64,000 nt of DNA from Escherichia phage REP4. The notes beneath the pieces are model-generated. The model was not told the origin of the DNA. It searched no databases and saw only the letters and a program-made list of their open reading frames with translations. The position numbers and the translations under genes were made by a program. Position 1 is the first letter of the stretch, and the number at the start of each line of letters is the position of its first letter. The stretch lies in the sequence record OQ174503.1. One strand, given 5' to 3'. Positions 40,543 through 62,892 of the stretch are shown here, piece after piece.

Positions 40543-40553
40543 AACTTTTTGAA

Positions 40554-40736: not shown

Positions 40737-40744
40737 ATTAATTC

Positions 40745-42032: not shown

Positions 42033-42040
42033 AATTTTCC

Positions 42041-42382: not shown

Positions 42383-42588
42383 TACAAAAAGCCTCTCTTG
42401 AATTCAACTTGCTTCTCGCCATAATCATATCGAATCTCTGCATTAAATTCGACAGAACCATCTGCATACATCATAAATGAATGCACAACAACTTCTGCAG
42501 ACCATGGCTGCAGTTCATATTTCTTCATTACATGCCGTGAAATGATAATATCTAAATCTTCATTTGGTTTAATCCAACGATTTAACAT
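42382..42588 (-). CDS. Hypothetical 68-aa protein
   Basis: ORF track; ATG; early promoter upstream. Confidence 0.55.
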   Translation of the reverse strand: MLNRWIKPNEDLDIIISRHVMKKYELQPWSAEVVVHSFMMYADGSVEFNAEIRYDYGEKQVEFKRGFL

Positions 42589-42614
42589 AGTGCTCTCCTC
42601 TATAAGATAATTCT

Positions 42615-42645
42615 ATTATACCATTCTCATTTTGGAAAGTAAACC
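42615..42645 (-). promoter_or_regulatory. Early promoter (GTTTAC, 19 nt, TATAAT)
   Basis: Minus-strand GTTTAC at 42640-42645 and TATAAT at 42615-42620. Confidence 0.55.
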
Positions 42646-42654
42646 AGTAAAATG

Positions 42655-42679
42655 AAAAAGGACTCCCGGAGGAGTCCTT
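42655..42679 (-). terminator. Terminator AAGGACTCC-TCCG-GGAGTCCTT plus U-run after soc
   Basis: 9-bp perfect stem followed by a T-run on the minus strand, 5 nt after soc stop. Confidence 0.8.
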
Positions 42680-42683
42680 GAAA

Positions 42684-42929
42684 TTATTCACCAGTTACTT
42701 TCCACAAATCTTCGTTTGCAGTAATCCATTTAGTACGTTGATTTTCTTCATATACTGTAGAATATGCTGCTTTTTCTGAAGGGAATGTCTGGTAATGAGC
42801 GCCAGAAATTTTGTGAACGTCAGAATAAAGAGGGAAAGCTACAGAAATTTCCTTTCCTTCAATTTTCTTATTTCCATCTAATTTCTGCTCAAACGTTTTG
42901 ATATTAACATAACCGCGAGTACTAGCCAT
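42684..42929 (-). CDS. soc: Small outer capsid protein Soc, 81 aa
   Basis: ORF track; near-identical to T4 Soc (MASTRGYVNIKTFEQKLDGNKKIEGKEISVAFPLYSDVHKISGAHYQTFPSEKAAYSTVYEENQRTK). Confidence 0.96.
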   Translation of the reverse strand: MASTRGYVNIKTFEQKLDGNKKIEGKEISVAFPLYSDVHKISGAHYQTFPSEKAAYSTVYEENQRTKWITANEDLWKVTGE

Positions 42930-42959
42930 GTAATTCTCCTTTTATTTAAATTACATGAT

Positions 42960-42967
42960 TATTTATA
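42960..42967 (-). promoter_or_regulatory. Late promoter box TATAAATA for soc
   Basis: Exact TATAAATA on minus strand about 30 nt upstream of soc ATG. Confidence 0.8.
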
Positions 42968-43141
42968 TCAGTCTTCAACGAAAACTTGCGCCAGGAATTC
43001 ATGTTCATCTTGAATTTGTTTATATAAAGCCATTACAGCATTTATATTAGAGCTATCTACTTTAAGCTGATAAGCATACAACTCGTATAAATTAATTAAA
43101 GCTTTTTGACGTCTAATAAATTCTTCTTTGGATATTTTCAT
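42968..43141 (-). CDS. Hypothetical 57-aa protein (soc.1 position; not in ORF track)
   Basis: Manual translation MKISKEEFIRRQKALINLYELYAYQLKVDSSNINAVMALYKQIQDEHEFLAQVFVED; ATGA overlap with upstream ORF. Confidence 0.45.
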   Translation of the reverse strand: MKISKEEFIRRQKALINLYELYAYQLKVDSSNINAVMALYKQIQDEHEFLAQVFVED

Positions 43142-43341
43142 TTTGAATGTTCTATAATTAATTTTAAGGCTTCTTCGCTGACAAAAATTTCATCAGGACC
43201 TTCTTCTACAACCCAATCAACCACACGAAGCTGATTAGATAAGAGCTCACATACGAGCTCCTTGTCATAATTTTTAAATAGCTGGTCAATACGTTTCTTG
43301 CGGGCTTTCTTAAGCTGGCGTTTATTTAAACGAGCCATCAA
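43138..43341 (-). CDS. Hypothetical 67-aa basic protein (soc.2 position)
   Basis: ORF track; ATG overlaps gene 56 stop. Confidence 0.55.
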   Translation of the reverse strand: MMARLNKRQLKKARKKRIDQLFKNYDKELVCELLSNQLRVVDWVVEEGPDEIFVSEEALKLIIEHSK

Positions 43342-43856
43342 TAACCTCGGTCTTGACGAGCGAAGTTTTCAGCATTTTTCAGATAATAAAGTTTAAAGAT
43401 TTCTTCAGCCGTAAGACCGAGACCTTGGAACATGTTCAGAACGAAATGAAGAATATCAATCATTTCAAATTTAATTTCCAACTGGTCTTGCGGAGACAAA
43501 TCAGTAATTAGAGTTTCACGACGTTCACCATGCTGTGACTTCCAAGGTTTCCATACAGCAGATGCATCTTTTTCGCCATTGCTCATACCGCCAAGAGATG
43601 TCAGAAGTTCACGGAATTCATCGTCAATATAATCTTTCTGATTACGCAGCCAATCAACAACTTCACCAGCAGTAGCCAAATCATCAGGATGACGGTTATA
43701 TTCAGGTTTATCTTTAGCTAAACGAACCTGCAAAGATTTCTGCATATCAAGCATAACCTGCAGCGGGTCTTTTTCATCACCGAGAATATCCCAGTATTCG
43801 TTTTGAGCTTTATCAGCGCCTTCGATCAGTTGTGAACATTCATTAAAGTATGCCAT
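43338..43856 (-). CDS. 56: dCTP/dUTP pyrophosphatase gp56 (MazG-like), 172 aa
   Basis: ORF track 43338..43949 shortened to ATG at MAYFNECSQLIEG; size and position as T4 gp56; N-terminal extension in track runs through intergenic DNA. Confidence 0.85.
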   Translation of the reverse strand: MAYFNECSQLIEGADKAQNEYWDILGDEKDPLQVMLDMQKSLQVRLAKDKPEYNRHPDDLATAGEVVDWLRNQKDYIDDEFRELLTSLGGMSNGEKDASAVWKPWKSQHGERRETLITDLSPQDQLEIKFEMIDILHFVLNMFQGLGLTAEEIFKLYYLKNAENFARQDRGY

Positions 43857-43927
43857 TATTTTTCCTTTCAATTCATGGATTAGTAGATTAATTATACAAT
43901 AAATATATAAAGCAATAAGGAGGACAT

Positions 43928-44128
43928 ATGGTACAAAAATTAATGGCACTTGTTAATGCCATAAAAGGTAATAAAAAACGTATAGCTTTTACTATTTCTG
44001 CTATGATAGGAATTTTACTTTGGAATTTTGTTTTATCGCCAGTAGCTATTGCTCATGGCGTTAGTATTCCAGTAATTACTCTTGATACATTCGTAGATTT
44101 AGCATTTGCTTTAGTTGGGTTAATTTAA
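43928..44128 (+). CDS. Hypothetical 66-aa two-helix membrane protein on the opposite strand
   Basis: ORF track; strong SD AAGGAGG 4 nt before ATG; hydrophobic segments; only plus-strand ORF with a good RBS inside the minus-strand early region. Confidence 0.5.
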   Translation: MVQKLMALVNAIKGNKKRIAFTISAMIGILLWNFVLSPVAIAHGVSIPVITLDTFVDLAFALVGLI

Positions 44129-45153
44129 ATCTTAGCATATTTAGATAGCCGCATTTTAGCCATCAGCCCTTGAGCAATATTATTTTTCATATATTCCATA
44201 ATTTGTTCAGGGGTTGCACCTTCCTTTCTAATCATATCATTAACATCTTTTGATTTCCAGGGAGATTTATCCCAAAACATAACCCTTTCTCCTGCATCAA
44301 CCAATTTAGTCATTCGTTTAATAGTGTCAGGATGACGAGGTTCATTATCTAAAACCCATACACGTCTATCTTTAAATGGAACAATTTCTAGGTCTAATTG
44401 ACCACCTGTAATAGCTATACCATTTTCAATAAAAAGTGAATCTATAGGTCCTTCTAGAACATATACATCACCATCTTTAACCCGTTCAACACCATAGATT
44501 TTTGTTGCCTCAGGATAAGCTTTGATGGTGATATATTTTTGAGGAGCATCTTTCTTTAATGCGCGTCCTTGAAAAGACTCAGCTTTTCCATTAGCATTAT
44601 AAATTGGAATAACAAGACGAGGCTCAGATATTTCCTTTTTATATGTTCCTGGTGCTATACTATTAACTAATTTAGGCCATTCAGTTGTAAACCAAAGATA
44701 TTTCCATTTATCCTTTGGAATACAGCGAGCTTTTACGTATTTTATAATTGGATGGTCTTCCGCCAGTTTATCTAATCTAATGCATGACGGAAGAGATTTA
44801 ATTATTTTCTTCTCAGGTTGTTTAGGAAGTTCTTTAGGTTTTTCTACTGGACGACTTTTACCTTTTTCTTTTCTTATTTCAAAGATATACTCACGATATA
44901 AATCAGGTTCAAACTCCTTTAAATATATTCCGATTGGTGCATGATAGTTACAGTTATAGCAATGAATATTTCCTTCATTATTATCACCATAATACCATCC
45001 ACGGGCTTTATTTTGGTCGGTTTTTGAATCTCCACAAACAGGGCATCTAAACCGTAATTTAAAAGTTGAACTATTATTTACTTGTGTGAATTTAGGTAAA
45101 TGAGCTAATGCACGGTATGCAAACTCATTATCAATCCAAGGTATTGATGGCAT
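44125..45153 (-). CDS. 61: DNA primase gp61, 342 aa
   Basis: ORF track; near-identical to T4 gp61 (zinc ribbon CPVCGDSKTDQNKARGWYYGDNNEGNIHCYNCNYH, TOPRIM core). Confidence 0.96.
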   Translation of the reverse strand: MPSIPWIDNEFAYRALAHLPKFTQVNNSSTFKLRFRCPVCGDSKTDQNKARGWYYGDNNEGNIHCYNCNYHAPIGIYLKEFEPDLYREYIFEIRKEKGKSRPVEKPKELPKQPEKKIIKSLPSCIRLDKLAEDHPIIKYVKARCIPKDKWKYLWFTTEWPKLVNSIAPGTYKKEISEPRLVIPIYNANGKAESFQGRALKKDAPQKYITIKAYPEATKIYGVERVKDGDVYVLEGPIDSLFIENGIAITGGQLDLEIVPFKDRRVWVLDNEPRHPDTIKRMTKLVDAGERVMFWDKSPWKSKDVNDMIRKEGATPEQIMEYMKNNIAQGLMAKMRLSKYAKI

Positions 45154-45155
45154 TT

Positions 45156-45320
45156 TTACTCTTCTTTTTCTTTAGATTCCTCTTTTTTCTTTTTAGGAAT
45201 CTGTTCAGGACCTTTATTTACTACAGCGCCTGACGTTGTTCCAGTAGAGATATTTTCAGGATTACCACCTGAATCGCCAGCTACCATATCTTCTTTAATA
45301 AATTCTTTATATGTTTTCAT
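45156..45320 (-). CDS. 61.1: Hypothetical 54-aa Gly/Lys/Glu-rich protein (not in ORF track)
   Basis: Manual translation MKTYKEFIKEDMVAGDSGGNPENISTGTTSGAVVNKGPEQIPKKKKEESKEKEE; position and size of T4 61.1. Confidence 0.5.
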   Translation of the reverse strand: MKTYKEFIKEDMVAGDSGGNPENISTGTTSGAVVNKGPEQIPKKKKEESKEKEE

Positions 45321-45321
45321 A

Positions 45322-45948
45322 TTAACCTCTATTCATAAAAGCATTAAAAATTTGGTCATCAATAGAAACATTCACTTTAGACTGTTTTTCTGATGGTAAT
45401 TCATATCCACATATTACAATTTTATGATCAATATCAAAATACACAGAAGCAATATGATTAATGATGTTTTCAGTAAAGTCTAAATCAACATCAATATCTT
45501 TTTGACCACAGCCCAAAGGATAAATAATGCGAGTAATTCGATTATCTTTAACAAAGATTCCACCGATATACTCTGTGCTGCGTTCAAAGTCTACACGCCG
45601 ACGAAATGAAAAATATTCAGGCTCTTTATGAGCTCGGCTCATAGGACACAACGAGTAACTAGAATAAGAGATGTCAAATCCTACGCCTTCAATATGAGCC
45701 AAATTATCATGATTAAACCAATTATAATCGTACGCCAAGTCCATTAGATTATAATATGTGAAAGGCACCGGATTAACATCATTAGTCACAAGCATGTAAT
45801 TAGCAACTGCTATAATTTCATTATTTTTAACGAATACAAACCGTGATTGATGTGAATGACCTGGACCTGCGTTTTCACGATTAATGATATAACACTGGGC
45901 ACCTTTATATTTGTACGTGTCTTTGCACTTGTGCATTTGATAAAGCAT
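45322..45948 (-). CDS. Hypothetical 208-aa protein at the T4 61.2 position (the gene reported as anti-DarT factor AdfA in T4)
   Basis: ORF track; position between 61.1 and sp and length match T4 61.2; assignment is by synteny and size only. Confidence 0.6.
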   Translation of the reverse strand: MLYQMHKCKDTYKYKGAQCYIINRENAGPGHSHQSRFVFVKNNEIIAVANYMLVTNDVNPVPFTYYNLMDLAYDYNWFNHDNLAHIEGVGFDISYSSYSLCPMSRAHKEPEYFSFRRRVDFERSTEYIGGIFVKDNRITRIIYPLGCGQKDIDVDLDFTENIINHIASVYFDIDHKIVICGYELPSEKQSKVNVSIDDQIFNAFMNRG

Positions 45949-46241
45949 TATTCACCTACCACTTCAGCGATGATATTTTTATTATTGAAGTTTTTATCAC
46001 AATACAGAACGTAATTATACTGCATTACACCACCAGACTTAAGCTGTTTTTGTACTTCAGCTTTCATTTCAGGGCGATCACGCTCAACGATATTCATAAT
46101 ATCCGCTTCAATTTGAGTTTCAACTTCAGTCTGATCTGCAGTCATAGACCATTCACACAAATCTTTGTCATAACCCGCCATAGCAGGCTGAGCAGCGCAA
46201 GAAGATAAAGCAAAAATTGCAGCAAAGATAAATTTTTTCAT
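45948..46241 (-). CDS. sp: Spackle periplasmic protein (superinfection exclusion; inhibitor of gp5 lysozyme), 97 aa
   Basis: ORF track; 22-aa signal peptide MKKFIFAAIFALSSCAAQPAMA then 75-aa mature part with two Cys; size and position of T4 sp (61.3). Confidence 0.85.
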   Translation of the reverse strand: MKKFIFAAIFALSSCAAQPAMAGYDKDLCEWSMTADQTEVETQIEADIMNIVERDRPEMKAEVQKQLKSGGVMQYNYVLYCDKNFNNKNIIAEVVGE

Positions 46242-46269
46242 GATAATCTCCTCAGTAGTTTATGTTTAT

Positions 46270-46299
46270 ATAGTATCTCAATTTTCAACAAAAGTAAAC
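46270..46299 (-). promoter_or_regulatory. Early promoter for sp (GTTTAC, 18 nt, TACTAT)
   Basis: Minus-strand GTTTAC at 46294-46299. Confidence 0.6.
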
Positions 46300-46346
46300 A
46301 CTAGTAGAAGCAAACAGACAAATTGCAATAATTGGTGATTTCAGTT

Positions 46347-46541
46347 TCATTCTTCTCCTCCTTCATGTTGATGAACATATTCTTTTTCAAGTCTAGAGCA
46401 CAAGTTTTCATATTCAACTAATAAAAGTGAATCAAGTGCGTTATTTCTATGCTGACACCGTTCTTGTAAAGAATCCATCTCTGAACGTTGTTCTTGTGTT
46501 AATAATTGATAACCTGATACTTTAGACATTTTGTTCTCCAT
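46347..46541 (-). CDS. Hypothetical 64-aa acidic helical protein
   Basis: ORF track; ATG; no counterpart I can place in the T4 61-41 interval. Confidence 0.55.
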   Translation of the reverse strand: MENKMSKVSGYQLLTQEQRSEMDSLQERCQHRNNALDSLLLVEYENLCSRLEKEYVHQHEGGEE

Positions 46542-46593
46542 TTACTCGTTTGTTTTGATAGGTCTATAATAACATGTTTAAAACAAAAGTAAA

Positions 46594-46848
46594 CTATTTT
46601 ATTTCCTCAAGTTCGTTAATCAATAAAAGTTCTCTGACGCTAAAAACAAAGAAAAATGTGTTCCCATCAACCAGAGCATGACCGCTAATAGAACACCCTC
46701 TGCGGAATTTAGAAACTTCACAATCTAGAACTGTAAAAGGTTTTAATCCTATGACTTTAGCTGTGCGTCTATTCAGTTCACAACCACTCGCGAATTTTTC
46801 CAAATCTTCTTCTGATTTAAACTGATATTCTCTATTAACTAGCATCAT
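46594..46848 (-). CDS. Hypothetical 84-aa protein with three Cys
   Basis: ORF track; preceded by its own early promoter. Confidence 0.55.
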   Translation of the reverse strand: MMLVNREYQFKSEEDLEKFASGCELNRRTAKVIGLKPFTVLDCEVSKFRRGCSISGHALVDGNTFFFVFSVRELLLINELEEIK

Positions 46849-46879
46849 TTTCTTTTCTCCGCGATTAGCTGATAGAATT

Positions 46880-46909
46880 ACTATAACACAACTCTATCAG
46901 CTTGTAAAC
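46880..46909 (-). promoter_or_regulatory. Early promoter (GTTTAC, 18 nt, TATAGT)
   Basis: Minus-strand GTTTAC at 46904-46909. Confidence 0.65.
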
Positions 46910-46911
46910 TA

Positions 46912-47154
46912 CTATTTTACTAGCATCAATAGCTGTTTCTCTAACTTGACGATTTTACGAAAGTATCTTTTGCATTGGCGAATCTGTCGCTTCGTAGGGC
47001 GCACAGCAAACTTAATAAATTCCACTCGACCAAATGGAGGGCTTTCTTCTGCTGGAATATCTAACACCAATTCCCACGTATCTGCAACAAGTGCTTTGAA
47101 TTGAGTATTTTTCCTGACATTATATGGAGTAGGTTTAAATAAAACAATATGCAT
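46912..47154 (-). CDS. Hypothetical 80-aa basic protein at the T4 61.4 position (the gene reported as toxIN inhibitor TifA in T4)
   Basis: ORF track 46912..47196 shortened to ATG at MHIVLFKPTPY with RBS GAGGATAAT; Lys/Arg-rich C-terminus; assignment by position only. Confidence 0.5.
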   Translation of the reverse strand: MHIVLFKPTPYNVRKNTQFKALVADTWELVLDIPAEESPPFGRVEFIKFAVRPTKRQIRQCKRYFRKIVKLEKQLLMLVK

Positions 47155-47155
47155 A

Positions 47156-47338
47156 TTATCCTCGGCAATCCACTTCACATACTTTCTTGTCATCAATGAA
47201 AGCTTTAACTAATGCTTTATTAACTTCAGCATATTGAGTAGTAGCCCATTGAACGTCATCTTTCATCATTGTGATTTCTTTAGTAAACATGCTTTCATTC
47301 TTAAACCACCCCATAAAAACTACCTTTACCAATTCCAT
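47156..47338 (-). CDS. dmd: Dmd-like antitoxin (inhibitor of RnlA/LsoA toxins), 60 aa
   Basis: ORF track; 60 aa, directly downstream of helicase 41 with its own early promoter, as T4 dmd (61.5). Confidence 0.6.
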   Translation of the reverse strand: MELVKVVFMGWFKNESMFTKEITMMKDDVQWATTQYAEVNKALVKAFIDDKKVCEVDCRG

Positions 47339-47367
47339 AACAATCTCCTCATTTAACCAACAAGACT

Positions 47368-47397
47368 ACTATACCATAGTCTTGTCGGCTTGTAAAC
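47368..47397 (-). promoter_or_regulatory. Early promoter for dmd (GTTTAC, 18 nt, TATAGT)
   Basis: Minus-strand GTTTAC at 47392-47397. Confidence 0.65.
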
Positions 47398-48824
47398 TAA
47401 AATTTTAATTCATTTGCCAAAGCATCTAACTGAGCTCGAGCGGATTCGTTTCTTTGATAGCGGTTCTGTTCAGCTTGTATCTGTTGTGAACCTGCTACTT
47501 CGTTCACTTCAGTTGGAGTAGAATCTTGTTCAATTTCTACCCATTTCTGATTTCCTTTTTGAACACCCATCAAAAACTTATTCCATTTATTCTTATCACC
47601 ATATCGTGATTTGATTTGCTTAATGAGTTGCTGTTCAGCCGCTGCTAACTCCTCGGTTTCAATGACCGCAAGCATAAAATCGGCTGTTGCTGGAAGACCG
47701 GCAGATTCTGCAATATCGCTCATGTTAACATCAGAAGAATCCCAAGCTTGCTTACCAACCTGTGCTGCAGTCCAAAGAACAGTTTCGGTTTCAACAGCCA
47801 GAGCACGCAATTCCTCTGCAATAGCTTTAACAGTTGTATAACTATTTTCTGAATAAACTCTGATGCGGCAAGATTTACAAATACCTAGATAGTCAACAAT
47901 AATGATTGTTGGAACAAAATTCTTCTTGAGCTTTAATTCGTTTAAAAGAGAACGAAATGTATTAGCGTCTGCTCCACCAGTAGGATACTGTTTAACGATT
48001 AAACGACCGAGAGTAGATTTCTCACGCCATTTTTCCATTTTTCCTTTATACTCAGCATAAGAAATATGCCCATCATCAATGTCATCAAGAGAAACATCGA
48101 GCATATTAGCGTCAATACGTTTAGCACAGACTTCTTCTGCCATTTCCATGGAAATGTAAAGAACATTATGACCGAGCTGTAAATAATCTGCTGCCAATGA
48201 ACATAGACCTAATGACTTACCAACGTTAACACCAGCCATTAAAACGTTCAGTGTTCCAGTCTCAGCTCCGCCTTTAGTAATTTTATTTAGAATTTTGAGT
48301 TTAAATGGAACCTTACGAGCTTTATTCATATAAGATAGCCAACGTGCTTCGTAGTCATCCATCCAATCATGGCCAACATAGCTATCAAATGAAATTGATA
48401 ATGCTTGACGCATGATGTCAGGAATAGCACCAACATCCGGCATTTTCTTATTTCGTTTTTCCGGAGGAAGTTCAGCATTAGTTTGAATTTCAATTATTTT
48501 AGACGTAGCATTAAACATCGCCCTTTGCTGAACATATTTTTCCGTTTCTTTTACTAACCAGCTGTGGTCTTCCGGAGAATCGGTTAGTTTTGAAATAAGT
48601 GTTTTTACACCAGAATATTCTGTTTCAGTAAATGAACTATTTTCTAATGCAACATTTAACGCATTAATAGATGGAACGCTATGGTACTCATTAACATGAG
48701 ATTTAATTAATTTGAATGTATTTTTAGCTGGACCACTTTCAAAATATTCTGAATCCATATATGGCCAAACTTTTGAAAAATAAGCTTGATCAAATATGAG
48801 ATGAGAAAGAATAATTTCTACCAC
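47397..48824 (-). CDS. 41: Replicative DNA helicase gp41 (DnaB family), 475 aa; apparent GTG start
   Basis: ORF track; near-identical to T4 gp41; first codon GTG with AAGGAG RBS 5 nt upstream. Confidence 0.95.
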   Translation of the reverse strand: MVEIILSHLIFDQAYFSKVWPYMDSEYFESGPAKNTFKLIKSHVNEYHSVPSINALNVALENSSFTETEYSGVKTLISKLTDSPEDHSWLVKETEKYVQQRAMFNATSKIIEIQTNAELPPEKRNKKMPDVGAIPDIMRQALSISFDSYVGHDWMDDYEARWLSYMNKARKVPFKLKILNKITKGGAETGTLNVLMAGVNVGKSLGLCSLAADYLQLGHNVLYISMEMAEEVCAKRIDANMLDVSLDDIDDGHISYAEYKGKMEKWREKSTLGRLIVKQYPTGGADANTFRSLLNELKLKKNFVPTIIIVDYLGICKSCRIRVYSENSYTTVKAIAEELRALAVETETVLWTAAQVGKQAWDSSDVNMSDIAESAGLPATADFMLAVIETEELAAAEQQLIKQIKSRYGDKNKWNKFLMGVQKGNQKWVEIEQDSTPTEVNEVAGSQQIQAEQNRYQRNESARAQLDALANELKF

Positions 48825-48833
48825 ACTTACTCC

Positions 48834-49178
48834 TTAAAAGAATTTAAATTTTTTCTTTGACCTTTTATTAAATGCATCTTGCAGTTGCATTGTAATACAT
48901 TTTTCTACATGAGGAGCTAACTCAGCTTTTCTTTCTTGGTCAAGAACAGCAAAGTCCATTACGACTTTTCCATCAACCCAATCTAATTTTGTCACATACA
49001 CAATGTGTGTAGAACCATCTTCTAGTTTAATGACAATCTCCTGGATAACATTTTCCATGGCAGATTTAATTATCTTAAGAGATTCATTAAAAAGACGTTC
49101 TTTTCTTTCTTCTTCCCCCTCCGAAGAGGGGGATTCGTCGATAATTTCTAGATCTAAATCTAAATCATCTTTATTCAT
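48834..49178 (-). CDS. 40: Head vertex assembly chaperone gp40, 114 aa
   Basis: ORF track 48834..49196 shortened to ATG at MNKDDLDLDLEIIDESPSSEGEE, overlapping the uvsX stop. Confidence 0.8.
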   Translation of the reverse strand: MNKDDLDLDLEIIDESPSSEGEEERKERLFNESLKIIKSAMENVIQEIVIKLEDGSTHIVYVTKLDWVDGKVVMDFAVLDQERKAELAPHVEKCITMQLQDAFNKRSKKKFKFF

Positions 49179-50352
49179 TAAATTCTTCCATATCACTTAA
49201 CTGATCTAGGTCAGTTTCTAAATCAGCTGCTGATTTGTTTTTACTTTCTGGAGATTTAAATTTTTCAACCTTTGAGTTAATCAATTCATCAACTTCAGCT
49301 TCAACAATTTCATTACTATCAATAGCACCTAACTGATAAGCACGTTTAATAGCATCTCGGAATGGCTGATGCTTAAATAAAGGACCCCAGAATGTAGTGC
49401 AATTGGTATCTTTTGCACGCCAAGATTTTTCTTCGCGAATCATCTCGCCGGTTTCTTCATCAAGAAATTCACGAGCATACCAACCATTTTTAGGTTTTAC
49501 CACAAATCCTAATTCAAGAGCCATATCTAACAATCCAGAATAAGGATCGATACCACCGTCAAATTTAACATCAATAAAAAATTTACTTTTTTCTTTAACG
49601 GTACGAGATTTTTCTACATTTAGAACAAATTGATACCCCTGAAGATCAGAACCATCTTTAATCTGGCGCTTACCGATAATGAATACAGTATCAGCCGAAT
49701 ACATTACGCCTGTACCACCTGTCATCACGGTTTTACTAAACATTTCAATTGTTTCAATTGTATGGTTAACCGCAACACATGGAATGTTTTTAATACTAAA
49801 ATAAGGAGTAACAATACGGAATAATGACTTCAGCGATTTAGCACGAGTCATATCTGCCACAGATTTTTCATTCAAGGCATCTTCCGTTTCTTTCTTAGAA
49901 GCCATATTACCGATTGAGTCGATAAATACAATAACTTTTTCACCGCGCTCAATAGCTTCAAGCTGATTCACCATATCAATTTTCAGCTGTTCAACTGACT
50001 GAATTGGCGTATGAATTACTCGTTCCGGGTCAACTCCCATGGATCGCAAATAAGCTGGAGTAATACCAAATTCGCTATCATAAAATAGACAAACCGCATC
50101 AGGATATTTGTTCAAATACGCCGCAACCATAGTCAAAGACATATTTGATTTAAAGTGTTTAGAAGGACCTGCAAAAATAGTTAAACCAGACTGCATACCA
50201 CCATCAATCGCGCCAGAAATAGCGATATTGAGCATTGGAATTTTTGTACGGATTACATCCTTTTCATTAAAGAATTTAGATGTAGTCAGTTCAGCAGTCA
50301 TTTTAGAAGTGGAAGCTTTAATCAAACGGGATTTTAAATCTGCAATAGACAT
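49171..50352 (-). CDS. uvsX: UvsX recombinase (RecA family), 393 aa
   Basis: ORF track; near-identical to T4 UvsX (Walker A GPSKHFKS; C-terminal acidic tail). Confidence 0.96.
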   Translation of the reverse strand: MSIADLKSRLIKASTSKMTAELTTSKFFNEKDVIRTKIPMLNIAISGAIDGGMQSGLTIFAGPSKHFKSNMSLTMVAAYLNKYPDAVCLFYDSEFGITPAYLRSMGVDPERVIHTPIQSVEQLKIDMVNQLEAIERGEKVIVFIDSIGNMASKKETEDALNEKSVADMTRAKSLKSLFRIVTPYFSIKNIPCVAVNHTIETIEMFSKTVMTGGTGVMYSADTVFIIGKRQIKDGSDLQGYQFVLNVEKSRTVKEKSKFFIDVKFDGGIDPYSGLLDMALELGFVVKPKNGWYAREFLDEETGEMIREEKSWRAKDTNCTTFWGPLFKHQPFRDAIKRAYQLGAIDSNEIVEAEVDELINSKVEKFKSPESKNKSAADLETDLDQLSDMEEFNE

Positions 50353-50429
50353 TCATTTTTTCCATAGGCATCATTATATTTTCCTCACTGGTTAAAGATA
50401 GAATAATTATAACACAATAAATTTAGGCA

Positions 50430-51272
50430 TTAATCGACTGCTATTGGATGAATAGCATTAAACTTATGAAACGCTTCTGATTTTTCTTTGCGCGAAACAC
50501 ACATGCGAAGAACCTTTAATGGCTCGTCTTCTTCACCTAATGATTTTCGTTTTTCAATATTAGAAGTTTTCCAACGAGCTTGCTCTGGAAACTCTTTATT
50601 GATTTGCTCAAGAGCTCTATTATGTTTTGAATTACTACGAATTGAACTACATCCGCCTGGAGCTTGTGCTTTTCCAGACACAACCAGATATTTGAACAAA
50701 GCCAAATGCGGATAACCCTGATTAATTAAATTGAGAAATGCATACATATCTTCGCATAAATCAATTTTTCCATACCCAATTTGTTCTGTAGTAAGTTTTC
50801 CGAGGTCATACCATGTATTCGTGAATCCATATGAATTTTCACGATAATTACCCCAAGATGAAGTAATTTTAAAAATAGGTAGACGAGCATGACCGTGATA
50901 ATACCCGCAATCCATGGCATCTTCAACGTATTGAATCAATTCATAGAACTGTTCACGAGTTAATTGATTAATTTTATCTACGCAGCGACGATCATCTTTC
51001 TTTCGCATTGAACTCATACGAATAGTAGTATCATCATCAATCATCCAAATTCGTTGACCTGCATACATATCAGTAATTGCTTTACGAGTTCCAGCAATTC
51101 CATTAACATCATCAGGAATAGTTATAATTTTAGCCCTAGACCCGTAAGCGTCATAATAAGCTTTTTCTTCATGTTCACGTACTACAATATGAGGTTCATA
51201 ATCAGTCGGAAACATATCAAGGGCAGAAACTGCCCCTACGCGTTGATAGCTTGGAATTACGAATTGAATCAT
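50430..51272 (-). CDS. ba-gt: GT-A fold glucosyltransferase, 280 aa, at the position where T4 encodes b-gt; probable beta-alpha-glucosyltransferase of T2/T6 type
   Basis: ORF track start is GTG; ATG at MIQFVIPSYQR overlapping gene 42 stop (ATGA); DxD-type motif WMIDDDTT; 280 aa versus 351 aa for T4 b-gt. Confidence 0.65.
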   Translation of the reverse strand: MIQFVIPSYQRVGAVSALDMFPTDYEPHIVVREHEEKAYYDAYGSRAKIITIPDDVNGIAGTRKAITDMYAGQRIWMIDDDTTIRMSSMRKKDDRRCVDKINQLTREQFYELIQYVEDAMDCGYYHGHARLPIFKITSSWGNYRENSYGFTNTWYDLGKLTTEQIGYGKIDLCEDMYAFLNLINQGYPHLALFKYLVVSGKAQAPGGCSSIRSNSKHNRALEQINKEFPEQARWKTSNIEKRKSLGEEDEPLKVLRMCVSRKEKSEAFHKFNAIHPIAVD

Positions 51273-52009
51273 TTCCACTCACCGTTATAATCTTTTTTCG
51301 CAATATGAGTTTCGCCAGTTTTCCACCAATGGTCAACCAAATAAAAATGACGGGAATACACATGAAGGCTACCGACATTCCATATAATGGAACCTGCTTT
51401 ATACTGACGAGTTGAATCACCTGCATTCAAATCAGATACTAATTTATCTAGTACATATTTTTGCCATGCATAATCATTACGGAATCCGAAGACCACGTCA
51501 TTTGAACGCATGTTAACCACTGCATTAATTTTCTTATCACGAATCAGGTACTGTACTGTATTAGTACACATGAAATCCGACATGCCATCTTTATTGTAGT
51601 CAAACTGCATGGATGGACGAGTATAAATCATGATACCGCGTCGAGAATCAGGATTTTGACCAAGTTCAGCTAAACACATATCATACTGGGCATAGTTATC
51701 TTCTGACCAGATGGCCCAACCATAATTCGAGTTAATTTCGCCTTTAGAAGATGCTACCTGCTGCCAAATCTTCGGCGTTTCACCTGGAATATCTTTAACA
51801 AACAAACTTTGAGACTTATACCATTCAAGTTCACGCTGAATGTATTCATCATTAAGAGCGCCAAAAATAAAAGGTTCATCTGCTACAAATGATGCACCAA
51901 TAATTTCAATAGTTTTAACACCGGTTTTATCAATTACGAAATCTTTTTCCTTTAATGCAAGACCCAAATCAAGACGGATTTCTTCAACTGTCATATAATC
52001 GTTAATCAT
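51269..52009 (-). CDS. 42: dCMP hydroxymethylase gp42, 246 aa
   Basis: ORF track; size identical to T4 gp42; thymidylate-synthase-like fold motifs. Confidence 0.93.
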   Translation of the reverse strand: MINDYMTVEEIRLDLGLALKEKDFVIDKTGVKTIEIIGASFVADEPFIFGALNDEYIQRELEWYKSQSLFVKDIPGETPKIWQQVASSKGEINSNYGWAIWSEDNYAQYDMCLAELGQNPDSRRGIMIYTRPSMQFDYNKDGMSDFMCTNTVQYLIRDKKINAVVNMRSNDVVFGFRNDYAWQKYVLDKLVSDLNAGDSTRQYKAGSIIWNVGSLHVYSRHFYLVDHWWKTGETHIAKKDYNGEWK

Positions 52010-52016
52010 TTAAACC

Positions 52017-52166
52017 TCAATTGATGCATTCATATTTAATTTGTAACAGTAATAAACTCCAACCTATAATAAGTGGCGGAATCATAAGAGGAACTGTTAC
52101 GCTATAGTATATACTTATTATAATCATCAAGATTAAAAGCAATACTGCTAAAATTTTGCTTTTCAT
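52017..52166 (-). CDS. Hypothetical 49-aa membrane peptide translationally coupled to imm (not in ORF track)
   Basis: Manual translation MKSKILAVLLLILMIIISIYYSVTVPLMIPPLIIGWSLLLLQIKYECIN; ATG overlaps imm stop (ATGA). Confidence 0.45.
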   Translation of the reverse strand: MKSKILAVLLLILMIIISIYYSVTVPLMIPPLIIGWSLLLLQIKYECIN

Positions 52167-52414
52167 TCCTTCTCTCTGATGATAATTACTTGATTTTGCT
52201 GTACAGATTTTTTAGTTTCACCCGCAATTGACCAAATAAATGTAATAAACCAACCAATGATTGACCAGTTAAACAGTAAAGATGTGAAAAAGATTCCTAC
52301 TGTCGATTTTGACCCACGCATCAAGGCGATGAACCATGGAAGCATGTATATAATAATAGCCAACACGCCTGAAACTAAAACCATAAAAATTGAACCTGCT
52401 ACTAAAGTTTCCAT
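52163..52414 (-). CDS. imm: Superinfection immunity membrane protein Imm, 83 aa
   Basis: ORF track; 83 aa with two TM helices, located between 42 and 43 as in T4. Confidence 0.8.
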   Translation of the reverse strand: METLVAGSIFMVLVSGVLAIIIYMLPWFIALMRGSKSTVGIFFTSLLFNWSIIGWFITFIWSIAGETKKSVQQNQVIIIREKE

Positions 52415-52421
52415 ATTTTCC

Positions 52422-52802
52422 TCACTTAGTCAAATTTTTTACGCATGAATTATAAGAATTCACTACATACTCCATCGGAGCATTTTTACCTGTACGCCAT
52501 TGGTAATTATTAGCCCAATTAGCCCAAAGCTCAGCGCAGTAGTTTTCAATTTTTTCTTCGCGTGTAATTACATCTGAATTACGATATGCTTGAGCAGATT
52601 CATCTGGGCGAATAGCTTCGTCAAAATTCGCCTGCATCTGTTCTACTGTCTGTTTTGGAGCTTCTTTATAACACTTGACGTTAGGATTATAAAATTTGCT
52701 TGAACAGTTTACAATTTTTCCTACATCAGACTGATTTACTACCGGTCCTTGAGCTACACATCCAGTAAGACCCAATACAATAACCAAAATAGCGATTTTC
52801 AT
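52422..52802 (-). CDS. Putative lipoprotein, 126 aa
   Basis: ORF track; signal peptide MKIAILVIVLGLTGC with lipobox L-T-G-C; four further Cys in mature part. Confidence 0.65.
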   Translation of the reverse strand: MKIAILVIVLGLTGCVAQGPVVNQSDVGKIVNCSSKFYNPNVKCYKEAPKQTVEQMQANFDEAIRPDESAQAYRNSDVITREEKIENYCAELWANWANNYQWRTGKNAPMEYVVNSYNSCVKNLTK

Positions 52803-52812
52803 AATAATTTCC

Positions 52813-53049
52813 TCAAATACAAGTAGTAATTACTCCAGTAGTGCTTACACAGGTATTACCTAATTGAACACCCAACGTTCCATTAGTATTCATATGAAGA
52901 TTATCATCAATTTTTGTTGATACTTTACCATTCATGTGAATAATAGTATTAGATTCAATCACATTCTGAGTGTCATTTTCAATATCAATAAATGGAACAG
53001 TTGCTAATGCAACTAAACACGCTGCTAAACAACCATAAACAATTTTCAT
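52813..53049 (-). CDS. Putative secreted 78-aa protein
   Basis: ORF track 52813..53160 shortened to ATG at MKIVYGCLAACLVALATVPF (signal peptide, A-L-A cleavage motif); upstream part is promoter read-through. Confidence 0.55.
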   Translation of the reverse strand: MKIVYGCLAACLVALATVPFIDIENDTQNVIESNTIIHMNGKVSTKIDDNLHMNTNGTLGVQLGNTCVSTTGVITTCI

Positions 53050-53083
53050 TTTATTCTCCAAATCCGTATCAGTTGATAGTTGT

Positions 53084-53113
53084 ATAGTACCATGGAAGAA
53101 CGGGAATGTAAAC
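53084..53113 (-). promoter_or_regulatory. Early promoter (GTTTAC, 18 nt, TACTAT)
   Basis: Minus-strand GTTTAC at 53108-53113; conserved flank as in other copies. Confidence 0.7.
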
Positions 53114-53196
53114 AGTTTTGTGAAAAAAATTTTTAATGAATTTACAGGACCTAGAATCATCTATTTTTCCTAAGTATAGATTTATATTACTTGTAT

Positions 53197-53219
53197 GAAA
53201 AAGGGACCCGGAGGTCCCT
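53197..53219 (-). terminator. Terminator AGGGACC-TCCG-GGTCCCT plus U-run after gene 43
   Basis: 7-bp perfect stem and T-run on the minus strand, 12 nt after gene 43 stop. Confidence 0.8.
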
Positions 53220-53231
53220 AGATTTATTCTA

Positions 53232-55928
53232 TCAGCCAAACAGGAAGTCTAACGAAGCTTTTTCTTCATAGTCCATACCCGCCGATTCACACATACCCGC
53301 AAGCGGTTTAACAAACGATTTTTGGAACAAAGTTGAGTAGTCAATCCAAGATAGTACGTCAGAACGAATTTCTTTTGGAAGTTCCGTACCCGATGGCCAA
53401 GCAATGCACTTGTCACCAAATGGATTTCCTTCACGTAATGGAAGAACCATTACCTTATTTCCATCCAAAATTGGAGCTACACCTAAACCACTAACAGCTC
53501 GACGATAAGTTAACACACCACGAATATGGAACGGGCATTTAAATCCTGGCCAACCTTTATCGTCATATTTCGCTATATCGTTCGCGGTTTTTACTTCAGC
53601 AATAACTTTATAGTCAAGTTGACGATATTCTTTCTCAAAGTTCTTGTAGTATTCTTGGACAGACTCTTCGCCTTCCTGAAGAATACGACGAATACTTTCT
53701 TCGAGAGCTTCTTGTACTGCTTTTGGTGTTGAACTCTGCTGAGTTTCCATACCCATGATTTTTAGATGTGGTTCAGCAAATCGCTTATCTTCCATATCAT
53801 AAACGTTCAGAGCATAACGTTTTTTCGCTTTCCAAAATCCACCAACACCCTTTGAACCAAGTGGAGGGCAAGAAATAGCTTCACGGTCCATATGCATCAG
53901 ATGCTCGCGATTATTCATATAATCACATAACTCACGATATGCAACATCAATCATAGGTTCCATCTTTTTCTTACCAAACTGATTCATGAATTCAACTAAA
54001 TCATTTTGTTCTTTAAAGCGGTCAAGACCTACTTTTTCAATTACTTTATCTACACAAACATATACCGAATCAGTATCACCTGCTGCGATGAAATCTTCAC
54101 CATTAGTTCCACACACTTTATTTAGATACTCATTAATTTTACGAGCAATCCACTGAATACCAACTTGACCGAAAATTGTGATAGCAGTAGCATTTCGCAA
54201 ATCATAGTAACGGAAATGAATATTACCAAGAGCACCATAAAGACTGTTAATAAGAATTTTACGGTTCAGCTGATTTGTGTTAGCAAGTGTAGCTGCTTTT
54301 TCACATTCTTCGATCAGACTATTGAGAACAGATTCGGTGTAATTTGATAGTTCATTTAAGAAATCATCACTGAACTTAACATATCGTTCAACTTCTGGTT
54401 TAGTTGAGCAAGACCCTGCACCTTTCATAATAATCTTTTTAATAGCTTCGGCATTCATTTCTTCAGCGAACATTTTCTTTTTCCAATCTTTACGCTGGAA
54501 AAATACTTTAGCGATTTCCTTTGGAATGATACCTTCTTGGTGCTTATCATACATCCATCCATTCGGAGAGCAAGAATATTCATCACTTGGCTTAGGAGCT
54601 GTTCCTGCGATATATTCATGAATTGGATGAACTTTAAACTGCCCACGAATAGTCTCAGGACTAATGTTAACCTGACGAATAATGCTAGGATACAGAGACG
54701 TCAAGTCAAAACTCATAATGTATCGACGAGCAATCGGTTTAGGTTCAAACACAAATGCACCTGGAAAACTCTGTTTAACGTGCGAACCTTGTTGAGGAAT
54801 AACCTTATGTTCACCTTTCAGTGAGTTAAAAATAATAGCATCCCAAGTTTTAATAGGACTCATTACACCAGAAAAAGGCATTTTAGCATAATAAGACATA
54901 CTTAAAACTAGATCGATAAACCCACGAATTTTATCAATTGCTTGAACTGATTCTACGTCAATGATGTTATAACTAATGTATCGTTGATGATTAGTCTCAC
55001 GAAGTTTATTAATAGGACCATCGTACGGCAATTTACCTTTTTTGGTTTCGTGCTGAGCAACTGATTCCAAAGAGAATGATGGCAAATTAGTAAATGCGAA
55101 TTTTTTGTACAAATCTAAATAATCAAGAATAGATACGCCATCAATCGAATAAATTTCTTTGCTACCGTACATATTTTGAATTAGTTTAGATTTTACTCGA
55201 CCGATTGGAGAGAAGCGTTTCATACTACGTTCACCGAGAACCATTTTAACACGGTTCATGATATACGGAACGTCAAATCCCTCAATATTCCAACCGGTAA
55301 AAATAGCAGGTCGTTTCTGTTCCCAGAGATTAATATATTCCATGAGCATATCACGCTCATTATCAAATGGCATATAAATTACTCGGTCAAGAATTTCTTG
55401 AGGAACTTCATCACCACCTTCACAGTCAAGTTTAGCAGCTAACTTTGCATCCCATTTTGATACTGAACCGTACATTGAATTCAACAAATCAAAGACGTAA
55501 AAACGGTCGTCAATTGAATCATAATGAGTGATAGCATCAATTTCATATTCTGCTTTCATTGGGTCAGGAAATTTATCACCAGTAACCTCAATGTCACAGT
55601 TAGCTACACGAACAAATTTTCGGTCATAAACAATTTCTGAACCATATGTATCACTGATATAAGCGAGTTTAAAATCGTTCATACCGAGAGCTTCGAGACC
55701 GATGTCTTCCATTCGTTTCATCCAATCTCGTGCATCTTTCATTGATGGAAATTTTTGAGGAGCACAGTTTTTACCATAAATGTCTTTGTATTTTGACTCT
55801 TCCTTACAGTGCCTAAACATAGTCGGAAGATATTCTACTTCACGGGTACGTTCCTTTCCGTTTTCATCAATGTAACGCTCAACAATGTTATTTCCGACTG
55901 TTTCGATAGAGATATAAAATTCTTTCAT
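53232..55928 (-). CDS. 43: DNA polymerase gp43 (family B), 898 aa
   Basis: ORF track; size identical to T4 gp43; exonuclease and polymerase motifs (DIEVTG, YGDTDS, KILINSLYG). Confidence 0.97.
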   Translation of the reverse strand: MKEFYISIETVGNNIVERYIDENGKERTREVEYLPTMFRHCKEESKYKDIYGKNCAPQKFPSMKDARDWMKRMEDIGLEALGMNDFKLAYISDTYGSEIVYDRKFVRVANCDIEVTGDKFPDPMKAEYEIDAITHYDSIDDRFYVFDLLNSMYGSVSKWDAKLAAKLDCEGGDEVPQEILDRVIYMPFDNERDMLMEYINLWEQKRPAIFTGWNIEGFDVPYIMNRVKMVLGERSMKRFSPIGRVKSKLIQNMYGSKEIYSIDGVSILDYLDLYKKFAFTNLPSFSLESVAQHETKKGKLPYDGPINKLRETNHQRYISYNIIDVESVQAIDKIRGFIDLVLSMSYYAKMPFSGVMSPIKTWDAIIFNSLKGEHKVIPQQGSHVKQSFPGAFVFEPKPIARRYIMSFDLTSLYPSIIRQVNISPETIRGQFKVHPIHEYIAGTAPKPSDEYSCSPNGWMYDKHQEGIIPKEIAKVFFQRKDWKKKMFAEEMNAEAIKKIIMKGAGSCSTKPEVERYVKFSDDFLNELSNYTESVLNSLIEECEKAATLANTNQLNRKILINSLYGALGNIHFRYYDLRNATAITIFGQVGIQWIARKINEYLNKVCGTNGEDFIAAGDTDSVYVCVDKVIEKVGLDRFKEQNDLVEFMNQFGKKKMEPMIDVAYRELCDYMNNREHLMHMDREAISCPPLGSKGVGGFWKAKKRYALNVYDMEDKRFAEPHLKIMGMETQQSSTPKAVQEALEESIRRILQEGEESVQEYYKNFEKEYRQLDYKVIAEVKTANDIAKYDDKGWPGFKCPFHIRGVLTYRRAVSGLGVAPILDGNKVMVLPLREGNPFGDKCIAWPSGTELPKEIRSDVLSWIDYSTLFQKSFVKPLAGMCESAGMDYEEKASLDFLFG

Positions 55929-55967
55929 AGATATTCCTTAGTTTATAGCCCGAGTTATTAGGCTCTT
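55929..55967 (-). promoter_or_regulatory. Gene 43 translational operator hairpin (autoregulation site)
   Basis: mRNA leader GAGCCUAAUAACUCGGGCUAUAAACUAAGGAAUAUCUAUG contains the hairpin just upstream of the SD, as described for T4 gp43 autoregulation. Confidence 0.6.
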
Positions 55968-55986
55968 GATATATTATACTCCAAAT

Positions 55987-56004
55987 AAGGGGCCGAAGCC
56001 CCTT
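55987..56004 (-). terminator. Hairpin AAGGGGC-TTCG-GCCCCTT between the 78-aa ORF and the gene 43 promoter
   Basis: Perfect 7-bp stem; a -10 TATAAT for gene 43 follows 9 nt downstream. Confidence 0.6.
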
Positions 56005-56008
56005 TGCT

Positions 56009-56245
56009 TTAAATTTCTATTGTACGACGCGATATAACGGACTTGCCATCTTTATTTGTGGTTTTGATAATCGCATGAAATGCGAGCTGGTGCGGGTAAA
56101 CTAATCGTTGGAATTCTTTTTGGAATTCTATTTGTTTATCTTCCGGGAGGTCAAAAACCAGTTGGGTAGAAGACAGACCATATGTATGTTTTAGATTTTC
56201 GAATATTAGAAAAGCTTCGGTAAACTGAATCTCTGATTGCGTCAT
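56009..56245 (-). CDS. Hypothetical 78-aa protein between regA and 43
   Basis: ORF track 56009..56266 shortened to ATG at MTQSEIQFTEAF with RBS AAGG just after regA stop. Confidence 0.55.
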   Translation of the reverse strand: MTQSEIQFTEAFLIFENLKHTYGLSSTQLVFDLPEDKQIEFQKEFQRLVYPHQLAFHAIIKTTNKDGKSVISRRTIEI

Positions 56246-56255
56246 ATAATTTGCC

Positions 56256-56624
56256 TTAATTACCAATCGTATATTTAGGAACGAGTTTCCATTCGTGTTT
56301 TTGTTTAAAAGAAATAACTCGGAAGTTATTGGTTAAATCTTTCATAAAAGTTCTTTGACCAGGAACGATTTCAATCAGCCCCCAATCTTCTAACAGCCAC
56401 GCAATCGAATCACGACGAACTTCATCTTCTTCTGTCATTTCAACCTGACGGCCATCCATACGAAGCATTTCTTTAAAATGAACGATATAGTATAGTCCTT
56501 TTTTCTGGAGAATGTGGCAGGACTGATACAGAACTTTATCTTTATTATTAGCAATTCCCATACGAGTCAAAGTTTCTTTTACTTTCAGAAAATCTTCAGG
56601 TTTTTTAAGAGTAATTTCAATCAT
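56256..56624 (-). CDS. regA: Translational repressor RegA, 122 aa
   Basis: ORF track; size and position (downstream of 62) as T4 RegA. Confidence 0.88.
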   Translation of the reverse strand: MIEITLKKPEDFLKVKETLTRMGIANNKDKVLYQSCHILQKKGLYYIVHFKEMLRMDGRQVEMTEEDEVRRDSIAWLLEDWGLIEIVPGQRTFMKDLTNNFRVISFKQKHEWKLVPKYTIGN

Positions 56625-56625
56625 T

Positions 56626-57189
56626 TTACCATTCCAATGCTAGTTTTTTGAGTTGTTTCTGTTCTTTTACATTCTTAGTCACTTCTTTTAAAAAATCATC
56701 CGTGACTAAACCTTTTAGTTCTTTTAATACTAAAGGAAGTTTTCCATTTTTAGTAAGAATTGATTTATAGTTAATTGCATCATTTGTATTAACTTGATAC
56801 CGCTTAGCAAGTAACTTAATAATCAATACTTCAGTAGAATCTTCGACCAGTTTTGCCCATTTACCATATCTTTTACCCCGAGGAACAGCAGCCATCAGGT
56901 AATTAAAATGGGCTTCATCGCTTAAACCTGATCCAATTAAATTCATAGCATATACAGCTGGCATGCATTCAGGAAATTGTGATAATGCATTCTCAACCAT
57001 GTATTTTGAATAATCTTTTTGAGCAATAGAACATTTAGTTTTATTATTAATAGCTCCAATTATTTCAAAAAACTCATTTTCAGCTTTTTCTTTAAAAGAA
57101 TCAGCAGCAGATTGGACAGCTGTCCAATCTTTTGAATACCAAGCAACTTGATGCTCGTTTAATTGAATATCATCTTCAAATAAGCTCAT
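56626..57189 (-). CDS. 62: Clamp loader small subunit gp62, 187 aa
   Basis: ORF track 56626..57210 shortened to ATG at [22 protein letters not shown]; overlaps gene 44 stop. Confidence 0.92.
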
Positions 57190-57190
57190 A

Positions 57191-58150
57191 TCACTTCCAC
57201 TGCATTTCACATGCCAATTGAATGAAAAGATATGCTAAATGTAATTCAGTATTAGCCGCAATTCCATGATACTGGTTATTTTCACCAACAATTTCATACA
57301 TACGAATAATACTTTGCGGAGTTACGCGTGTATAGATTTCTTCAGCAAGTTTACCAACGAACCACGAATAATCAGCCGCATATTTTGGTGCTAAAGCTCT
57401 GAGTTGTTTAACATCTTTATTTTTGAGAGACTCAAGAACATCATCAATAGCACCACGATCGTTAGTAACCAGTGATAAAATACCAGCATCCAAAACACCT
57501 TTAGATGAATAACTATCGAGCTCACCAATAGTTTTACGAAAATCAGGAAAATTCTTTTTAACCAAAGCTGCTACAACTTTCATATCAGCTATAGCAATTC
57601 CTTCATGCTTACAGATTTCAGTCAATCGACGAATCATCTGCTTCATCATTTCAATTTTATCTTCATCGGTCGGTTGACCGAACGTAATAACTCGACAGCG
57701 TGACTGAAGTGGTTTAATAATACCATCAATATTGTTAGCAGTAATAATAATACTACAGTTTGAACTATAAGCTTCCATAAAGGAACGAAGATGTCGCTGA
57801 GACTCTGCTAATCCTGAACGGTCAAATTCATCAATAACGATTACTTTTTGACGACCATCAAATGAAGCTGCACTGGCAAAATTAGTCAAAGGACCACGAA
57901 CGAAATCAATTTTACAATCTGATCCATTCACAAACATCATATCAGCATTTACATCATGACACAATGCTTTTGCTACAGTTGTTTTACCTGTTCCTGGAGA
58001 AGGAGAATGAAGAATAATATGTGGAATCTTACCTTTACTTGTAATAGATTTAAAGGTTTCTTTATCAAAGGCGGGAAGAATACATTCATCGATAGTAGAT
58101 GGACGATATTTCTGTTCAAGAATGTGTTCTTTTTCATTTACAGTAATCAT
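57191..58150 (-). CDS. 44: Clamp loader large subunit gp44 (AAA+ ATPase), 319 aa
   Basis: ORF track 57191..58165 shortened to ATG at [17 protein letters not shown]; Walker [11 protein letters not shown]. Confidence 0.94.
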
Positions 58151-58184
58151 AATTTCCTCATTCAAGTTTTAGTGTAAATTATAA

Positions 58185-58198
58185 AGGGCCGAAGCCCT
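58185..58198 (-). terminator. Hairpin AGGGC-TTCG-GCCCT between 45 and 44
   Basis: GC stem with tetraloop and U-rich tail on the minus strand, 4 nt after gene 45 stop; probably partial, since 44 follows. Confidence 0.55.
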
Positions 58199-58201
58199 CT
58201 A

Positions 58202-58888
58202 TTAAAAGTCGTGGGTAGAATCAGCTTCAAGAGCTACTACATAATTCGCGTGTTCACCTTCAAATTTAGCAGCGCCTTGTTTACCTTTTGCCCAGAGCAG
58301 AAGTTTATAATTTCCTGGTTGCATTTTCATATTTGCCATATTGATAATGAAATTAAATGTATTTTCACCATCATAATCACCAAGAGTCAAAGAATATTTA
58401 ACACGAGTCAAAGCAGAATCTTCTACTTTATTAAAACCGTTAATTACGATTTTACCTTCTTTTACTGTGATAGCAATTGTATCAATCTGCAGACCGCGAG
58501 ATACACGCAACAGCTGTTGAAGGTCTTCAGCTTTAATTTCGGTAACAACAGATGCTACCGGGAATGGAATTGGTTTATTAGGAGCAACTACTGTACTCGG
58601 ATCGGCTGCTGGCCAAAAAATTGTTGAACGAGCATCAGCAATTTTAATATTTCCATCTTCTGACTGGGAAATTTCTGCATCGTCATTAACTAGGGACAGA
58701 ATACCGAGAAAACCGTTCAAATCGTAAATTGCTACATCAAAATCAATAGTGTCAGAAATATTTGCTTCCGCATAAGTTGTACCATTAACTGCGCGAGTCA
58801 TAATAAATTGACCGGATTTAAGCATAATACCAGAGTTAATAGTAGCGAAATTTTTAAGCAGAGCAGTAGTATCTTTAGACAGTTTCAT
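58202..58888 (-). CDS. 45: Sliding clamp gp45, 228 aa
   Basis: ORF track; size identical to T4 gp45; N-terminus MKLSKDTTALLKNFATINSGIMLKSGQFIMTRAVNGTTYAEANISD. Confidence 0.96.
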   Translation of the reverse strand: MKLSKDTTALLKNFATINSGIMLKSGQFIMTRAVNGTTYAEANISDTIDFDVAIYDLNGFLGILSLVNDDAEISQSEDGNIKIADARSTIFWPAADPSTVVAPNKPIPFPVASVVTEIKAEDLQQLLRVSRGLQIDTIAITVKEGKIVINGFNKVEDSALTRVKYSLTLGDYDGENTFNFIINMANMKMQPGNYKLLLWAKGKQGAAKFEGEHANYVVALEADSTHDF

Positions 58889-58943
58889 GTAATTTCCTTC
58901 AATTCAAATGAGATTTAATTTTATAACTAATTTAATAAAGCAA

Positions 58944-59333
58944 TTAACGATTAAAATCAGCAGCAATTGTTTCCGCAACAATTTGAGCAGCAACAATTAG
59001 ACGTTCATCTGCATTACCGCAATAACCATCTTCAAGGCGTTCACCACATGAAGTCATAATAAATTTAGCGCCAGCATTTAGAGATTCTGCCGTATGTTTG
59101 CGCATCAGTTCAATCCATTTATCACTCACTTCACGATCGATAGCTTCATAATACGCATGACGAGCAGGTGCAGATTTAATTTTGTTCTGAATAACTTCCA
59201 TTGCGTTATCAGAAAGAGACAAAACCCATGCTCGACGAATTTTATTTTGGTTTTGCGGATTTGATTCAGAACGCACGTGTTTTGGCTGAATATCTTTTAC
59301 ATCAACAGTATAATTCACAGTAATTTTAGTCAT
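58944..59333 (-). CDS. rpbA: RNA polymerase binding protein RpbA, 129 aa
   Basis: ORF track; size and position (between 45 and 46) as T4 RpbA. Confidence 0.8.
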
Positions 59334-59342
59334 AATACACCT

Positions 59343-59531: not shown

Positions 59532-59586
59532 GTTTTTCCTCCATAGAGATTATACTCTAATAAATTAAAGCATAATCTCTTATAAA

Positions 59587-62869: not shown

Positions 62870-62892
62870 TATATCAAACTCCGTATAAAGCT

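Follow-up and report, generated by a model that had tools for sequence, protein, structure and literature searches.

Which glucosyltransferase does Escherichia phage REP4 carry at the locus where T4 has its b-gt gene, and what would it do to the phage DNA? The DNA analysed here (the window) is a stretch of 64,000 nucleotides from record OQ174503.1. An intact open reading frame of 280 aa lies at 50430..51272 on the minus strand, between uvsX and gene 42. A sequence-only reading of this stretch had described a 280-aa gene with a WMIDDDTT motif at this place, and the list of open reading frames reproduced its coordinates exactly. The frame can also be read from a GTG as 50430..51278 (minus strand), giving 282 aa, and the ATG at 51272 gives the 280-aa product. 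We refer to the gene as ba-gt (also g-gt or TAGT, the beta-glucosyl-HMC-alpha-glucosyltransferase gene). Its protein, RIWMIDDDTTIR, carries WMIDDDTT at residues 76-83, as read from the sequence (51024..51047, minus strand), and the aspartates D79-D81 are encoded by GAT GAT GAT at 51030..51038.

The flanking genes lie on the same strand. Gene 42, encoding dCMP hydroxymethylase (51269..52009, minus strand, 246 aa, Pfam PF00303), is 100% identical to gp42 of phage PP01, and the downstream neighbour, the recombinase gene uvsX (49171..50352, minus strand, 393 aa), encodes a protein 99.7% identical to PP01 UvsX. The start codon of ba-gt and the TGA stop of gene 42 share bases as ATGA. A scan of 50250..52300 for promoters and terminators returned 11 and 1 sites, respectively, versus 9.9 and 1.1 in shuffled sequence, which is chance level. 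The simplest account of ba-gt expression would be that the gene is transcribed together with gene 42 and translationally coupled to it via the ATGA overlap. A GC-rich hairpin of 9 bp, TAGGGGCAGTTTCTGCCCTTG, lies inside codons 12-18 of ba-gt (51218..51238, minus strand) and is kept in T2, T6, and PP01. It was flagged as terminator-like by the scan, but such sites occur at chance count and the sequence is coding.

Database comparisons place the protein in a described family. It has 100% amino acid identity to PP01 BBC14379.1, annotated as beta-glucosyl-HMC-alpha-glucosyltransferase, so chance resemblance is not an issue. When 50300..51400 was searched by megablast in the phage collection, PP01 was the best record, with 99.8% DNA identity, and the PP01 gene, annotated 'beta-glucosyl-HMC-alpha-glucosyl-transferase', is likewise placed between 42 and uvsX. 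The protein is also 98% identical over its full length to the corresponding open reading frames of T2 (AP018813) and T6 (AP018814), and it matches PHROG 842 (beta-glucosyl-HMC-alpha-glucosyltransferase) with E = 3.6e-89. In Pfam its match is PF20691 (TET-associated glycosyltransferase, TAGT), with a score of 38.8 bits (cut-off 27.5) and an alignment that spans profile positions 2 to 205 of 205. An NCBIfam scan assigned neither glucosyltransferase to a family, and a sequence search of the PDB with the ba-gt protein gave chance-level matches only (E about 1), so sequence comparison detects no relative of solved structure.

On these grounds the gene at 50430..51272 very probably encodes the second DNA glucosyltransferase of the T2/T6 type, the enzyme that would yield gentiobiosyl-hmC. 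The enzyme is already known, and this protein sequence is already present in a deposited genome. The genes of T2, T6, and PP01 resemble that of REP4 in their locus between gene 42 and uvsX, their length of 280 aa, their DDD motif, and the ATGA overlap. The window protein differs from those of T2 and T6 by three conservative substitutions, K92, I101, and K226, all common to PP01, from which we would expect nothing of functional note. At positions where T2 and T6 differ from each other, it agrees with T2 for Y40, D55, and R106 and with T6 for R11 and P251.

A second glucosyltransferase of this type acts on the product of a first, and all the partners are found within the window together with ba-gt. 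The alpha-gt gene, which the sequence-only reading had noted at the window end, occupies 62909..64000 (minus strand). It covers residues 38-400 of 400, the first 37 codons being cut off by the window edge. The encoded part is 99.7% identical to that of PP01 (tblastn) and matches PF11440 (AGT) at 719.7 bits. Gene 56, encoding dCTPase/dUTPase, was found at full length with PP01 gp56 as the tblastn query (43341..43856, minus strand, 71.5% identity, E = 1.4e-82). The presence of gene 42, gene 56, alpha-gt, and ba-gt, together with the identity to the T2, T6, and PP01 enzymes, supports the earlier suggestion that both the enzyme and the DNA modification are of the T2/T6 type.

By the expected pathway, gp56 and gp42 would convert dC to 5-hydroxymethyl-dC in the nucleotide pool, with gp42 making hm-dCMP and gp56 keeping dCTP from replication. 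After replication, alpha-gt would add one glucose in alpha linkage to hmC in the DNA. The ba-gt enzyme would then use UDP-glucose to add a second glucose, beta-1,6, onto the first, producing gentiobiosyl-hmC. By analogy with the characterized phages, we infer that REP4 DNA itself carries gentiobiosyl-hmC. A phage with both alpha-gt and ba-gt is expected to contain alpha-glucosyl-hmC and gentiobiosyl-hmC and no beta-glucosyl-hmC.

A further question is how far the second glucosylation would proceed. In T2 and T6 the enzyme places its glucose on alpha-glucosyl-hmC, and the reported share of gentiobiosyl-hmC among hmC is about 5% for T2 and about 72% for T6, with about 25% bare (PMC13390438, PMC13216743, PMC11078745, bioRxiv 10.64898/2026.02.25.707755). 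The difference between T2 and T6 is 14-fold although their enzymes are 98% identical, so the presence of the gene does not predict the extent. The share of doubly glucosylated hmC is not predictable from sequence and varies widely among phages with ba-gt. REP4 could thus resemble T2, with an intact ba-gt making a minor contribution: the second glucose would reach only a few percent of hmC, the DNA would effectively contain alpha-glucosyl-hmC and bare hmC, and alpha-gt alone would set the sensitivity to defence systems. The T2 gene, which is 98% identical and yet accompanies about 5% gentiobiosyl-hmC, speaks for such a state, as do the residues Y40, D55, and R106 common to the window protein and T2, but R11 and P251 are instead common to the window protein and T6. 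LC-MS of ten Durham Tequatrovirus phages with alpha-GT and TAGT also argues against it, with 40-67% gentiobiosyl-hmC in all of them (PMC13390438). Three of the ten had hmC, alpha-glucosyl-hmC, and gentiobiosyl-hmC at about 1:2:2, in the remaining seven about one third was hmC and two thirds was gentiobiosyl-hmC, and beta-glucosyl-hmC was found in none (PMC13390438). The high-extent state therefore seems common, and we consider a minor contribution of ba-gt in REP4 unlikely. There is a slim chance that the REP4 allele, which mixes T2-like, T6-like, and PP01-specific residues, could help find residues that set the extent, if any exist, or alternatively that it gives an unusual modification ratio.

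Both deposited T6 genomes carry lesions in ba-gt, each a different one, whereas the gene is intact in T2, in PP01, and in the window. In T6 MH550421 (2138-2980, minus strand, of the segment compared), codon 10 is changed from CAG to TAG (amber), and the annotation starts at Met20, giving a protein of 261 aa. T6 AP018814 (4135-4974, minus strand, of the segment compared) is missing one GAT of (GAT)3, changing DDD to DD in a product of 279 aa. Such differences between stocks could matter for experiments, since T6 serves as the reference for high gentiobiosyl-hmC.

The acceptor expected for REP4 ba-gt, the glucose of alpha-glucosyl-hmC, is that of the T2 and T6 enzymes. The enzyme could in principle move another sugar or use another acceptor, such as hmC directly. 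Some phages encode distant TAGTs without an alpha-GT or beta-GT (PMC13216743), so the TAGT family is not limited to one acceptor. Such a change is very improbable for REP4, whose protein is 98-100% identical to those of T2, T6, and PP01, bears no sequence sign of a change, and is accompanied by an alpha-gt 99.7% identical to that of PP01.

The fold of the protein bears on both its mechanism and its relationship to T4 b-gt. A search for homologues returned 11 clusters, every annotated one of which was TAGT. D79, D80, D81, D175, and a PGG-S motif are invariant in 9 full-length sequences down to 32% identity. An AlphaFold2 model built on a 9-row alignment reached medium confidence (mean pLDDT 70.5, pTM 0.72). 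Its N-terminal, Rossmann-like half is confident, with pLDDT 85 for residues 71-80, and the structural matches of the model are GT-A enzymes only. These are of the GT2 family (TarP, TarS, chondroitin and hyaluronan synthases, BcsA, and SpsA) at 7-17% identity. The acceptor of ba-gt, unlike theirs, would be a sugar attached to DNA, and for its C-terminal half (residues 127-280) they offer no confident structural counterpart. For the T6 protein, too, a 2026 paper reports a GT-A fold, with TAGT as a sister to GT2 (PMC13216743). The PF20691 match, the GT-A matches of the model, and this result for T6 agree with the earlier assignment of the gene as a GT-A glucosyltransferase.

The Asp triplet D79-D81 directly follows model strand 74-77, the position of the DxD-type motif in GT-A enzymes, and from this placement we infer a metal-dependent, GT2-like transferase. 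It is presumably inverting, taking UDP-alpha-glucose to a beta linkage. D79-D81 would be the residues that bind the divalent metal and the diphosphate of the UDP-sugar, and the base would be a conserved acid in the second half, for which D175 of a conserved ED pair is a candidate. The conserved segments 127-151 and 193-211 are poorly modelled (pLDDT below 50), so the model lends no support to the acceptor-binding part of this mechanism.

T4 b-gt and TAGT are alike in using UDP-glucose as donor, in forming a beta linkage, and in modifying phage hmC DNA after replication (PMC13216743), and they occupy the same genomic position, TAGT being syntenic with T4 beta-GT (PMC13390438). T4 b-gt has a GT-B fold, for example PDB 1JG7 (PMC13216743), in contrast to the GT-A fold of ba-gt, and shares no sequence similarity with it. 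The acceptors also differ: T4 b-gt acts on the hydroxymethyl group of hmC, whereas ba-gt of the T2/T6 type acts on the glucose of alpha-glucosyl-hmC. BLASTP of the ba-gt protein against the 351-aa T4 b-gt returned chance fragments only, the best with E = 3.3 over 8 residues. Pfam places T4 b-gt in PF09198 at 325 bits and the ba-gt protein in PF20691, with PF09198 absent from the matches of the latter even at E <= 1. It is hardly credible that ba-gt is a truncated or degenerate GT-B beta-glucosyltransferase of the T4 type that has lost about 70 residues, since the one point in its favour is the shared position between gene 42 and uvsX, while BLASTP gives no alignment, the Pfam families differ, the structural matches are all GT-A and none GT-B, and DNA homology to T4 is lacking anywhere across the gene; the truncated form was rejected on BLASTP, on blastn against T4, and on the fold matches.

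The sequence-only reading had proposed a distinct enzyme and named an alignment showing a truncated b-gt as the result that would speak against it. With no alignment, separate families, and no DNA homology, what was found is a distinct enzyme.

The extent of the exchange can be followed in a blastn comparison of the window with T4. The two are homologous across imm.1, imm, and gene 42 as far as 51287, some 15 nt short of the gene 42 end, and homology returns at 50340, some 12 nt into uvsX. The segment without DNA homology to T4 (50341..51286, minus strand, 946 bp) is at the position of T4 b-gt and segA, and stands for 1941 bp of T4 (23556-25496) comprising these 2 genes. These alignments show a clean exchange of non-homologous genes at a conserved locus, and ba-gt is unrelated to T4 b-gt. 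T4 differs from the window in having the GIY-YIG homing endonuclease gene segA between b-gt and uvsX; tblastn detected no segA homologue or remnant in the 64-kb window. A tblastn search of the 64-kb window also detected no T4-type b-gt (E <= 1e-3), the canonical b-gt locus holding ba-gt.

The state described as ba-gt in place of T4 b-gt is that of the majority. The megablast search with 50300..51400 found ba-gt in 578 phage records; T4-type b-gt is in 29, and T4 itself makes up most of the 29. Having ba-gt at this locus is common among T4-like coliphages and the rule within the genus, with T4 as the exception. One phage carrying all three GT types is on record (PMC13216743).

Taken as a whole, the window fits an ordinary mosaic Tequatrovirus of the T2/T6/PP01 kind. 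For 39001..64000 no near-identical record was found, and the best matches have 97-98% identity in several joined pieces. The gene 56 product, at 71.5% identity to PP01 versus 99.7-100% for gp42, UvsX, alpha-gt, and ba-gt, is a sharply mosaic case in an essential gene of the hmC pathway. Between genes 46 and 47 (61266..61716, minus strand) the layout is T4-like, with 46, 46.1, 46.2, and 47 in order, and an 855-nt open reading frame found between gene 46 and 46.1 in PP01 (PP01_057), and also in T6, was not detected in the window by tblastn. A stretch of about 240 bp located between imm.1 and gene 43 (52803..53041) is without a T4 counterpart. It holds a small open reading frame (52813..53160, minus strand) with a hydrophobic, signal-peptide-like start, MKIVYGCLAACLVALA..., and a small hypothetical gene is annotated at its position in PP01 and T2.

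The second glucose matters for the encounter of the phage with host defences. Deletion of ba-gt from T6 abolishes gentiobiosyl-hmC, increases the sensitivity of the phage to Brig1, and leaves DNA that Brig1 can degrade in vitro (PMC11078745), and DNA of T6 delta-g-gt becomes a substrate of the deglucosylase BapA (bioRxiv 10.64898/2026.02.25.707755). According to this published T6 work, DNA with gentiobiosyl-hmC resists the Brig1 glycosylase in vitro and the BapA deglucosylase. GmrSD-type enzymes, BrxU included, still cut gentiobiosyl-hmC DNA (PMC13216743, PMC13390438). The altered sensitivity to defence systems anticipated for REP4 is supported by the T6 deletion mutants for Brig1 and BapA, with the caveat that GmrSD-type enzymes are not stopped by this modification. 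The finding is correct but ordinary and adds nothing new to biology, as an identical protein is deposited and the gene is found in 578 records. Its use would lie mainly in annotation and in predicting the outcomes of phage-host encounters.
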